Shown here: one piece after another, positions 4,233-6,038 of the stretch | Numbering within the stretch: the stretch's first letter is position 1 | Layout of the letters: the number at the start of each line of letters is the position of its first letter | NCBI RefSeq assembly: GCF_041248615.1 | Contig: NZ_CP158426.1 | Direction: 5' to 3' (one strand) | Length of the DNA: 64,000 bases | From: Escherichia coli | GTDB taxonomy: Bacteria; Pseudomonadota; Gammaproteobacteria; Enterobacterales; Enterobacteriaceae | The notes under the pieces: generated by a model | Databases searched by the model: none | The model's input: the letters and a program-made list of their open reading frames with translations, nothing else | Told to the model about the DNA's origin: nothing | Made by a program: the position numbers and the translations under genes

Positions 4233-6038
4233 TCACCGTATTCTCTGAAACAGGCCCCAAATCGTCCCAATGATATTATTCACTGTCATGTTAGTTGTGC
4301 ATAACATCCATGTACCAAGCATAGGATCGCCAAATAAAAAGCGGATATCTGTAAGTTTATCCGATGACGACGACACAATAACGGCCTGTCTGATACGATA
4401 CCCGGGTATTTCACGGGTATTTGTTACCTCATGATTTCGTTCTATGATCCCCAGAACATAAGACCCCACGGAATAAACACTTCCGACGCTCGCTGGCTGC
4501 CCCGGCTGTCCCTGTGGTCCTGCCGGGCCGCGTTCACCTGTATACCCTCTTGGCCCCTGAGGACCTGCCGGGCCGCGTTCACCTGTATCCCCCTTTAGTC
4601 CCTGTGGACCTGCCGGACCGCGTTCACCTGTATCGCCCTTTGGTCCCTGTGGACCACGCTCCCCCTGGGCTCCCAGCTCTTTCCATTCAGACCAGGGGCC
4701 ATTACCGGTAAAATTACCAGTAACAGTTCTTACGAACTTTCGTGGTGGGTTCCAGGTTGTATATTCATGCTGGCAATATCCCCATGCACCAACTCTTACC
4801 TGAAGATAACCCGCTCTCTGAATCGGATAATTATTTTCTCGTGTAGCCCCACTGTCTGATGGCTGATAATAATCACCCTGATCGGTCACTCGTCCCAGTC
4901 GGTTCAGATCACCATTCAGCAGTTGTCCACGGGCTGACTCTCCTCTTGGTCCCTGTGGACCTGCCGGGCCGCGTTCACCTGTTTCACCTTTTGCTCCCTG
5001 TGGACCTGCCGGGCCGCGTGCACCTGTTTCACCTTTTGGTCCCTGTGGACCTGCCGGGCCGCGTGCACCTGTTTCACCCTTTGCTCCCTGTGGACCTGCC
5101 GGGCCGCGTTCACCTGTTTCACCTTTTGGTCCCTGTGGACCTTCCGGGCCACGTTCACCTGTATCGCCCTTTGGTCCCTGTGGACCTGCCGGACCACGTT
5201 CACCTGTTTCACCTTTTGGTCCCTGTGGACCTCCCGGATCTCCTTTATCCCCCTTAGGGCCTTTTTCTCCTCGCTCACCCTTTTCTCCCTTCAGACCCTG
5301 AGGGCCTTCCGGACCACGTGCACCTGTTTCGCCCTTTGCTCCCTGTGGACCTGCCGGGCCGCGTTCACCTGTTTCACCTTTTGCTCCCTGTGGACCTGCC
5401 GGGCCGCGTGCACCTGTTTCACCCTTTGGTCCCTGAGGACCTGCCGGGCCGCGTTCACCTGTATCGCCCTTTAGTCCCTGTGGACCTGCCGGACCGCGTT
5501 CACCTGTTTCACCTTTTGGTCCCTGTGGTCCTGCCGGGCCACGTGCTCCTGTTTCACCTTTTGGCCCCTGTGGCCCGGTAATGCCTCTTTCACCACGAGC
5601 GCCGGTATCCCCTTTCTCTCCTCGTGGTCCCCGGGCAGATGCAGCTCGTTTCCGGGCTTCCTCCGCCTCAGATGCCGCGGACTCTGCTCTGTGCAGTATG
5701 GACTGCACCACAGCCTCCAGCTCTGACAACGCCTTCGGATAATAAGGAGCATCTTCCATCTCCATCAGAAATTTATTCAGTGTTCCCGGTGAAGAATCCT
5801 CCCTGACCACGATATCTCCCACATACGAAGGACGGTAACCTTCTGTATTGAGTGTCACCCTGTATATTCCTGGCTCCACATCCATACTGTAACTCCCCGT
5901 CTCTTCCGGCATGCCATAAGCCACTGTCGTGGCGATGACTGTCTCACTGGTTCTCTTCGCTTTCAGCTCAATAATGCATCCCGGTACCGGTTTTCCGGTT
6001 CCGTCCCTCAGCACGCCTGAAATTTTTACAGCCGCCAT
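4233..6038 (-). CDS. stf: side tail fiber protein with collagen-like Gly-X-Y repeats
   Basis: N-terminus [18 protein letters not shown]... resembles lambda Stf; long GPxGxxGxxG tracts in the middle. Confidence 0.75.
4500..5640. repeat. collagen-like triplet-periodic repeats inside stf
   Basis: Reiterated CCTGTGGACCTGCCGGGCCGCGTTCACCTGTTTCACC-type units encoding [16 protein letters not shown]. Confidence 0.8.

Follow-up and report, generated by a model that had tools for sequence, protein, structure and literature searches.

A collagen-like side tail fibre gene of a lambda-like Escherichia coli prophage whose relatives differ in length by 45-bp repeat units

The 64-kb stretch of DNA analysed here (the window) contains an intact gene for a 601-aa protein in which 97 Gly-X-Y triplets, all in a single minus-strand frame, are arranged in three runs (45 + 32 + 20). 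In our judgement the probability is about 85% that this tract makes up a collagen-like shaft in the side tail fibre of a lambda-like prophage of E. coli NRZ14408, and that this shaft gains and loses repeats of 45 bp. The protein is identical to RefSeq WP_202888934.1 (RefSeq annotation, record NZ_LT599825.1). The features of the gene and its surroundings are given in Table 1.

Table 1. Features of the fibre gene and neighbouring genes (positions are those of the window; aa numbering is that of the fibre protein)
Feature	Position (nt)	Strand	Remarks
Further ORF	1028-1681		near fibre gene
YadA/Eib-like remnant	2009-2917		near fibre gene
DUF4376 gene	3643..4218	-	directly downstream of stf; PF14301, E 1.5e-20
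stf-like side tail fibre gene	4233..6038	-	intact, 601 aa; ORF list and translation
C-terminal domain	4236..4493	-	86 aa, all-beta, ending GLFQRIR; putative function, see text
Collagen tract 2	4494..4673	-	20 triplets = 4 units of 45 bp
Knob	4674..4934	-	aa 369-455, 87 aa; globular, between collagen rods; R-type pyocin fibre fold
Collagen tract 1b	4935..5222	-	32 triplets = 6 units of 45 bp + GPRGES
Register break GDPGGPQG	5220..5243	-	aa 266-273; one extra residue, Gly-X-Y otherwise perfect
Collagen tract 1a	5226..5630	-	45 triplets = 9 units of 45 bp
Ala/Glu-rich short linker	5631..5741	-	aa ~100-136; translation; putatively helical
N-terminal collar (virion attachment) domain	5757..6032	-	aa 3-94; PF08400 and PDB 9E7M
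lom (Ail/Lom outer-membrane protein)	6104..6703	-	directly upstream of stf; PF06316, E 7e-125
J	8577-11999	-	split by IS1414

In agreement with the sequence-only reading, which had placed collagen-like tracts in this region, Gly-X-Y runs were found at nt 4494-5630, their coding strand being the minus strand, and Pfam Collagen (PF01391) matched the protein at 162.3 bits (cut-off 27.2). Gly-X-Y runs were found nowhere else in the 64-kb window. That reading had described about 1.1 kb of near-perfect 9-bp repeats. The repeat is indeed strongly non-random, but it is not continuous: the 261 bp at nt 4674-4934, which encode a knob, split the tract and are devoid of periodicity (identity 0.23 at lag 9 and 0.24 at lag 45), so that the collagen-coding DNA amounts to ~0.87 kb in total. 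Likewise, a GGN codon does recur every 9 nt, but the repeat unit proper is 45 bp long and encodes 15 residues. DNA self-identity of the tract was 0.79 at lag 45 versus 0.50 at lag 9, codon-shuffled controls giving 0.356 +/- 0.02 (maximum 0.42) at lag 9 and lag 45 alike, and Tandem Repeats Finder detected a 45-bp period (14.4 and 3.3 copies). Exact repeats within the tract reach 84 bp. Tract 1b is a paralogue of tract 1a (89% identity over 293 nt, with an 84-bp stretch identical), and the final two units of tract 1a form a non-consensus cassette of 30 residues. Plus-strand ORFs at 4859-5257 and 5318-5581 were rejected as genes; their translations are a repetitive mirror image, by-products of the repeat.

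The assignment to a side tail fibre, also proposed by the sequence-only reading, was upheld by the position of the gene and by its N-terminus. The minus-strand gene order is that of lambda (J, lom, stf, DUF4376 gene), with stf following J and lom inside the tail gene block. PF08400 (phage_tail_N) matched with E 4.4e-40, its match reaching aa 133 (nt 5640), and a phmmer search of the PDB aligned the N-terminal 92 residues (aa 3-94) to 9E7M, the N-terminal domain of Ur-lambda Stf, with E 3.4e-30; the two collars are thus homologous and the two genes occupy the same position following J and lom. Immediately downstream lies the DUF4376 gene, whose product matched phrog_1141 'tail fiber protein' (E 5e-62) and which adjoins related fibre genes at every related locus examined. 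Its product has no PDB relative, no NCBIfam match and DUF4376 as its sole Pfam match, and could be placed in no recognised Tfa (tail fibre assembly) family of Pfam, NCBIfam or PHROG; from the position of the gene, a role in fibre assembly or an accessory role is presumed. With a diversity-generating retroelement or an invertase switch in mind, domain scans of the ORFs neighbouring the fibre gene (DUF4376, YadA-like remnant, ORF 1028-1681, lom, IS1414 transposase and J fragments) yielded no match to a reverse transcriptase or invertase. Among sequenced phages, megablast matches extended only over lom and the first part of the fibre gene, and tblastn with the distal half of the fibre returned no record covering at least 80% of it.

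Could the protein instead belong to the bacterial surface, as an adhesin or virulence factor of the streptococcal Scl or Legionella Lcl kind, and not to the virion? It does match the NCBIfam models of SclA (224 bits), Lcl (200) and SclB (196), and the neighbouring genes encode surface proteins (Lom and the YadA/Eib-like remnant). These scores fall far short, however, of the curated cut-offs of 400, 500 and 325, respectively, and the matches cover the Gly-X-Y part only, for which reason an Scl/Lcl-type identity was rejected. Moreover, the protein has the lambda Stf collar as its N-terminus, the family matches include no domain for secretion or anchoring, the knob is a tail-fibre domain, and the gene is part of the tail gene block. 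We therefore consider an adhesin hardly credible and retain the side tail fibre.

Besides the collar and the collagen, the fibre protein contains three further regions. The gap between collar and collagen comprises only ~35 non-collagen residues, the short Ala/Glu-rich linker occupying the position that the 116-aa PCoil domain has in EPclA and EPclB (PMC3368898). The knob had no Pfam match, even at E <= 10, the Pf2 repeat PF03406 being unmatched as well, and searching the PDB with the single sequence of the knob or of the C-terminal domain gave nothing useful. The relationship of the knob to R-type pyocin fibres was detected only after building a profile, which matched 6CL6 (E 5.9e-13), 6CT8 (E 1.3e-11) and 6CL5 (E 1.9e-9). 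An AlphaFold2 model of the knob (pLDDT 91.4) was aligned by Foldseek to the same three structures with TM 0.71 and probability 1.00, so that the 87-aa insert has the pyocin knob fold as well as detectable sequence homology. Relatives of the knob form 274 clusters in tail-fibre-like proteins, and of 149 representative proteins with a knob only 9 contain collagen as well. R-type pyocin fibres have two knobs beside a C-terminal receptor-binding foot, whereas the window fibre has one, embedded between two collagen rods.

The C-terminal domain is presumed to be the distal trimerisation and receptor-binding module. It had no Pfam match at E <= 10 (PfC included) and no PHROG match. By profile comparison it appears remotely akin to the C-termini of EHEC collagen-like fibres: hhalign aligned it to EPclB-like fibre C-termini ('...GTW.C...GLFQRIS') with a probability of 95.5%, E 1.4e-8 and 26% identity. 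Its profile also matched the C-terminal end of Pa193 fibre gp47 weakly (E 0.009), in a part that is unbuilt in the structure. The AlphaFold2 model was weak (pLDDT 69) and Foldseek found no structural match for it (best E ~1). Word-indexed homologue searches with this domain returned 4 and then 30 proteins, mainly fragments.

The window fibre adds a member to the EPclP family described earlier (Ghosh 2012). EPclP proteins combine PfN (PF08400) with collagen of matching residue preferences and a GP(Q)-GPK-G(D/E) pattern, and both are found in the window protein. Its X positions hold 45% Pro, 35% Asp/Glu and 11% Ala, compared with 48/36/10 in EPclP (PMC3368898), and its Y positions 43% Arg/Lys, 19% Gln, 18% Thr, 13% Ala and 4% Pro. 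EPclP genes likewise occupy a prophage side-fibre position, and their Col domains differ between copies in multiples of three (PMC3368898), the window series moving in steps of five triplets (45 bp). The closest likeness in the features compared is to EPclC, a likeness that is one of architecture, the named EPclC proteins (P-EibA ORF-401, ECED1_1681/2081) having been compared by description only. EPclC has a conserved G-X-P-G-G-P-X-G break in the first of its two Col domains, as in GDPGGPQG of the window protein; both are without the long PCoil (~116 aa), and in neither is the C-terminus Pfam PfC. The P-EibA prophage, judging from its name and gene list, presumably has an Eib/YadA-like gene such as lies downstream of the window fibre. 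The first Col domain, however, is 232 aa long in the window protein versus 106-118 aa in the listed EPclC examples (~2x). Between the Col domains, the window protein has a pyocin-type knob where EPclB has a Pf2 repeat.

The EPclB-type fibres of Stx phages (phi24B gp61, Sp5 ORF67 (ECs1228) and 933W L0121) resemble the window fibre in having a collagen shaft and a small C-terminal globule, ending GLFQRIS; Sp5 ORF67 sits at the tail end and is required for infectivity. Their identity with the window protein is ~63%, in the N-terminal part only; a long coiled coil, Pf2 repeats and an origin in short-tailed phages set them apart from it. The protein type and its repeat-length behaviour have been described before, and the locus is a real but ordinary case that confirms the picture of EHEC prophage collagen-like proteins.

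The sequence-only reading had suggested that such tracts are recombinogenic and can vary fibre length or host range, and that identical tracts in all relatives would speak against this. Comparison of repeat number across related prophages gave the opposite outcome. Among relatives that are at least 98.5% identical outside the collagen, the triplet number ranges from 35 to 102 and moves in steps of five, and within the allele series the non-collagen parts are 0-4 nt apart. With alleles written as the triplets in tract 1a/tract 1b-tract 2, complete genomes contain 45/32-20 (the window and 11 other records), 45/32-15, 45/37-20, 45/17-20 and 35/17-21, as well as an allele 55/23 in which the knob and the second rod are both absent. 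In draft assemblies tract 1 has 19, 24, 29, 34, 39 or 44 triplets and tract 2 from 10 to 21. Removing exactly 45 bp from the window gene yields the allele of strain 135, which shows no other mismatch and has 25 nt perfectly repeated at the junction; removing exactly 300 bp yields a 501-aa allele, known from a megahit contig, whose junction carries a perfect repeat of 32 nt. Unit maps revealed duplications (20-49-20-49; 41-42-41) in addition to deletions between fixed anchor units. Together, the tract-length series and the exact unit-deletion allele support, at the level of sequence, the view that fibre length varies through repeat recombination. An effect on host range stays hypothetical, because the putative receptor-binding C-terminal domain hardly differs between the length variants.

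We weighed the possibility that the length differences are assembly artefacts in which repeats were collapsed or expanded. A tract of ~700 bp of 45-bp units exceeds short-read length, and many relatives are 'partial' collagen-like proteins at contig edges. Short-read or metagenome assemblies are the source of many short alleles, several of which, like the allele lacking 300 bp, are known from single ENA or megahit contigs. Since the tract breaks short-read assemblies, the gene's copy number in draft genomes is not to be trusted. Against this, six lengths (457, 529, 556, 586, 601 and 616 aa) occur among complete-genome-level RefSeq assemblies, the 601-aa allele is 100% identical at the gene level in 12 E. 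coli records, all complete genomes, and a 441-aa allele is present in 128 assembly-collection blocks (124 contigs tabulated), 4 of them with contigs >1 Mb. The differences are also clean multiples of 45 bp, with the anchor units conserved. An artefact is accordingly improbable, and recombination between repeats remains the preferred source of the differences. The 12 records with the 601-aa allele are spread over ~5 independent lineages, which indicates that allele change is not fast. The locus does not behave as a phase-variable contingency locus, since the changes are in frame and in multiples of 45 bp: it is length that varies, not phase.

Another question is whether the variation, though real, is neutral, a mutational by-product of tandem repeats in often decaying prophage genes that is without effect on adsorption or host range. 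We regard this as quite possible, at somewhat less than even odds. In keeping with it, alleles of different length have almost the same C-terminal domain on the receptor side, and decay is visible at several loci: GF60 and AR_0085 have IS66 insertions and pseudogenes, the prophage of LR-31 is rearranged, and in the window itself IS1414 lies inside J, so that the fibre of the window strain may never reach an infectious particle. On the other hand, the intact alleles all stay in frame, hold the Gly-X-Y register perfectly across 35 to 102 triplets and retain the anchor units and the interruption cassette, which speaks for ongoing selection to maintain a functional rod. In addition, a spontaneous collagen-repeat deletion in ORF8 of the Guarani virophage altered its host range (PMC7242381), although neither point is proof that length itself matters here.

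EPclA was shown by experiment to be trimeric and to contain a collagen triple helix, and CD, AUC and EM evidence for the triple helix concerns the relatives EPclA and EPclB only (PMC3368898). The triple helix, trimer stoichiometry, fibre geometry and receptor binding of the window protein are attributed to it by analogy, and any phenotypic effect of fibre length is likewise one that we infer. In the build that we propose, the collar would fix the fibre protein to the tail tip, as in Ur-lambda Stf, and three chains would join in a short helix that passes into a collagen triple helix of ~67 nm (232 residues), with the GDPGGPQG register break ~38 nm along this first rod. The pyocin-fibre-type knob and a second collagen rod of ~17 nm would follow, after which the small C-terminal beta domain presumably trimerises the chains and touches the cell surface; the DUF4376 protein probably helps fibre assembly. 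The perfect stretches of 25 to 84 bp that the 45-bp units have in common could permit slipped-strand mispairing or unequal crossing-over between units, by which whole units would be gained or lost, always in frame. The alleles differ stepwise in shaft length, by 15 residues (an estimated ~4.3 nm) per step, and exchange between the two rods may also remove the knob.

For Ur-lambda Stf, 12 collar domains and four trimeric fibres are described (PMC12617516), and the window fibre is presumably organised in the same way, for fast initial adsorption. The shaft of lambda Stf is a coiled coil with a hinge, and its gp37-like distal part binds OmpC (PMC12617516), whereas the window fibre has a collagen shaft, unrelated distal domains and a DUF4376 gene downstream. 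Streptococcus thermophilus phages have collagen-coding repeats in their antireceptor genes, for which a role as recombination hot spots has been proposed (Duplessis & Moineau 2001). In those phages and in the Guarani virophage, whose proteins and hosts are unrelated to those of the window, the repeats flank a variable receptor-binding region; in the window fibre, by contrast, the flanking domains are conserved and the repeat number alone changes.

The relatives offer a clean natural series in which attachment domain, knob and tip are constant and the shaft is estimated to run from ~30 to ~88 nm in 4.3-nm steps. This series could be used for testing fibre length against adsorption, and for measuring rates of repeat-mediated recombination or obtaining collagen spacers of set length. 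We put forward, as a tentative and rather unlikely idea, that the 45-bp unit is a quantised length adjuster: selection, not drift, would set the number of 4.3-nm steps so that the tip reaches its receptor through O-antigen or capsule layers of differing thickness, and rod recombination would switch the knob in or out. If that were true, the shaft would be a contingency-like host-range determinant with a constant receptor-binding tip. Side fibres make phage adsorption faster and broader, and fibre geometry would therefore affect the spread of prophage genes among E. coli.

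The interval 4500-5640 lies within a single intact open reading frame encoding 601 aa (WP_202888934.1, annotated as 'prophage tail fiber N-terminal domain-containing protein' on the NRZ14408 chromosome, NZ_LT599825.1). A six-frame scan detected three Gly-X-Y runs, named tracts 1a, 1b and 2, all in the frame of this gene, and no further run elsewhere in the 64-kb window. Tracts 1a and 1b (together rod 1) are divided by one extra residue, in the motif GDPGGPQG, and 87 non-collagen residues divide tract 1b from tract 2 (rod 2). The Pfam Collagen model scored 162 bits (cut-off 27.2). 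The sequence-only reading had described this region as about 1.1 kb of collagen-encoding 9-bp repeats. The repeat is real, its self-identity lying far above that of codon-shuffled controls (0.356 +/- 0.02, maximum 0.42), but its extent, unit and strand needed correction: the collagen-coding DNA totals ~0.87 kb and is split by a globular domain, the true unit is 45 bp, encoding 15 residues, and the coding strand is minus. Tract 1 self-identity was 0.79 at lag 45 versus 0.50 at lag 9, and Tandem Repeats Finder returned a 45-bp period with 14.4 and 3.3 copies. The same self-identity test revealed no periodicity in the intervening 261 bp. Perfect internal repeats in the gene reach 84 bp, and rods 1 and 2 share identities of 35 and 41 bp. 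Plus-strand open reading frames within the tract were rejected as mirror-image by-products of the repeat.

Features of the window around the fibre gene
Feature	Position	Strand	Basis
Mu-like genes (gp16 family, Mor transcription activator)	11-701, 1028-1681	+	
Truncated YadA/Eib-like trimeric autotransporter gene	2009-2917	-	
DUF4376 gene	3643-4218	-	
Fibre gene	4233-6038	-	
Tract 2, 20 Gly-X-Y triplets	4494-4673	-	six-frame scan
Knob	4674-4934		
Tract 1b, 32 Gly-X-Y triplets	4935-5222	-	six-frame scan
Tract 1a, 45 Gly-X-Y triplets	5226-5630	-	six-frame scan
lom	6104-6703	-	
J, C-terminal fragment	6771-7484		
IS1414 transposase in J	7459-8667	-	
J	8577-11999	-	
Second IS1414 transposase	46485-47693	+	
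CHAT-domain protein gene, adjoining integrase	47879-51362	-	

That the gene encodes a side tail fibre was borne out by the match of residues 3-94 to the Ur-lambda Stf N-terminal domain (PDB 9E7M, E 3.4e-30) and by the gene order, which is the J-lom-stf-tfa arrangement of lambda. The upstream neighbour of the fibre gene varies between prophages: it may be lom, a pair of hypothetical genes or J itself (related loci L002, L004, L007, L011 and L013, versus window 6039-6770). Hence, the fibre and DUF4376 genes, joined by the YadA-like gene in prophages that have it, appear to move together between lambdoid backbones. The YadA/Eib-like gene, truncated here just downstream of the DUF4376 gene, is whole at related loci such as those of B771 and Ch1; we take its placement to resemble the Eib prophage arrangement. 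The Mu-like genes abutting it suggest that the lambdoid prophage received a further insertion at its end, by an element of the Mu type.

To compare repeat number across related prophages, as the sequence-only reading had proposed, we collected alleles of the fibre gene. Of 5426 complete E. coli genomes, 22 carry a member of the family; the match in a 23rd record is confined to a portion of the N-terminal region (76%). Twelve records carry the identical gene and represent about five independent lineages, since eight of them come from repeated deposition of four chicken isolates with one chromosome length.

Fibre gene alleles in complete genomes (tract lengths in triplets)
Strain	Protein	Tract 1a	Tract 1b	Tract 2	Remark
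B771, LH50-c	601 aa	45	32	20	substitutions between unit variants
135	586 aa	45	32	15	
Ch1, 24A16CRGN010	616 aa	45	37	20	
ECCNB12-2	556 aa	45	17	20	
TUM9803	529 aa	35	17	21	
GF60		45	27	21	broken by IS66
AR_0085		55	42		pseudogene
TUM1886	457 aa	55	23		collagen joined straight to C-terminal domain; no knob or second rod

The tracts differ in length, and outside the collagen the alleles are just 0-4 nucleotides away from the window, which makes the shaft far more variable than any other part of the gene. In database proteins that share the N-terminal, knob and C-terminal sequences, the first tract is unbroken and counts 19, 24, 29, 34, 39 or 44 triplets, and the second counts 10 to 21. In unit maps, the head units, the interruption cassette and the tail unit are fixed anchors, between which units are duplicated, deleted or exchanged. 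The allele of strain 135 equals the window allele minus 45 bp; its 1761 nt are otherwise the same, and a perfect 25-nt repeat marks the deletion junction. Likewise, a 501-aa metagenomic allele, taken from a megahit contig, equals the window allele minus 300 bp, with a 32-nt repeat at the junction and zero other differences. Short-read assemblies can collapse such repeats, so the case for length variation leans above all on complete genomes, together with a 441-aa allele for which the assembly collection has 128 indexed blocks (124 contigs in the relatives table). Many relatives of window 4233-4673 (P0121-P0123, P0274-P0296) are entries named 'collagen-like protein, partial' whose sequence begins within the tract where a contig ends, which makes the repeat a routine breakpoint of short-read assemblies. 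Together, the allele series and the exact deletions at repeat junctions support a recombinogenic tract and a variable fibre length: 45-bp units are gained and lost through repeats, always in frame.

In Ur-lambda, the collar around the tail tip consists of twelve Stf N-terminal domains, which flexible linkers connect in threes to give four trimeric side fibres (PMC12617516). The window fibre would likewise attach via its collar domain. A short Ala/Glu-rich segment, presumably helical, follows (residues ~100-136). Rods 1 and 2, of 232 and 60 residues, have predicted lengths of ~67 and ~17 nm, respectively, at the 0.288 nm per residue of Ghosh et al. As a single sequence, the knob between them (residues 369-455) had no Pfam or PDB match. 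Relatives came to light through an exhaustive HMMER search; they lie in fibre-like proteins, many of which contain several copies, and the profile built from these relatives matched R1/R2 pyocin fibre structures (6CL6, E 5.9e-13; 6CT8, E 1.3e-11; 6CL5, E 1.9e-9). The AlphaFold2 model is confident (pLDDT 91.4) and superposes on pyocin fibre knobs (TM 0.71, probability 1.00). This ~80-aa knob type, seen in the window and in proteins P0125-P0273, occurs in 274 clusters at 50% identity, usually with one to five copies per protein, and the members tested match no Pfam model. The last 86 residues matched no family and are poorly modelled; in profile-profile comparison they were related to EPclB-like fibres, whose C-termini read '...GTW.C...GLFQRIS' (hhalign 95.5%, E 1.4e-8). 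This distal domain would serve in binding or trimerisation.

J is interrupted by IS1414, an element of the IS256 family, which cuts the C-terminal receptor-binding end off from the rest of the gene; the fibre gene is intact. The prophage is probably defective and, since the insertion occurs in this strain only among the 5426 complete genomes, probably newly so. The second IS1414 transposase (402 aa) equals the copy in J in length and Pfam scores; the two copies, in opposite orientations, flank ~39 kb of prophage and could act as an agent of inversion. Beyond the second copy, a 729-aa CHAT-domain protein adjoins a tyrosine integrase (405 aa), a segment that may be a separate integrated island. 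In LR-31 (locus L001, 3588-7268), a head decoration gene directly precedes a 3681-bp 'tail tip protein' gene, so that most tail genes are missing from this rearranged prophage, yet its fibre gene is identical. The distal half of the window fibre was found in none of 50,697 phage genomes, and the fibre is known from prophages only.

The window protein belongs to the prophage collagen-like proteins EPclA-D (Ghosh et al. 2012, PMC3368898). It matches EPclC on every feature tested, having a PfN domain and two Col domains, lacking a long PCoil, and sharing the conserved G-X-P-G-G-P-X-G break, EPclP residue preferences and a C-terminus other than PfC. In EPclA/B, in contrast, a 116-aa coiled coil replaces the short Ala/Glu-rich segment. 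Trimeric collagen rods were shown experimentally for EPclA/B, and Col lengths differ between copies in multiples of three (PMC3368898). To this we add the five-triplet (45-bp) step with exact junctions, the recognition that a pyocin-type knob lies between the rods, a knob-less recombinant allele, homology of the collar domain to that solved for Ur-lambda, and remote C-terminal homology to EPclB-type termini; the kind of protein is unchanged.

By analogy, the window protein would form a trimeric collagen rod. For the EPclB-type fibre of Sp5, location at the tail end and a requirement for infectivity have been shown, and both would apply to the window fibre by homology. Units would be gained and lost by slipped-strand mispairing or by unequal crossing-over, which the data fit alike. 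Exchange at the 35- or 41-bp identities between the rods would delete the knob, as seen in TUM1886. The outcome is a shaft-length polymorphism with a step of 15 residues (~4.3 nm); across alleles the total shaft ranges from ~30 nm to ~88 nm. Since all these length variants keep a conserved tip domain, any effect on host range is hypothetical, although the idea has precedent: collagen repeats were proposed as recombination hot spots in the antireceptors of Streptococcus thermophilus phages (Duplessis & Moineau 2001), and a collagen-repeat deletion altered host range in the virophage Guarani (PMC7242381).
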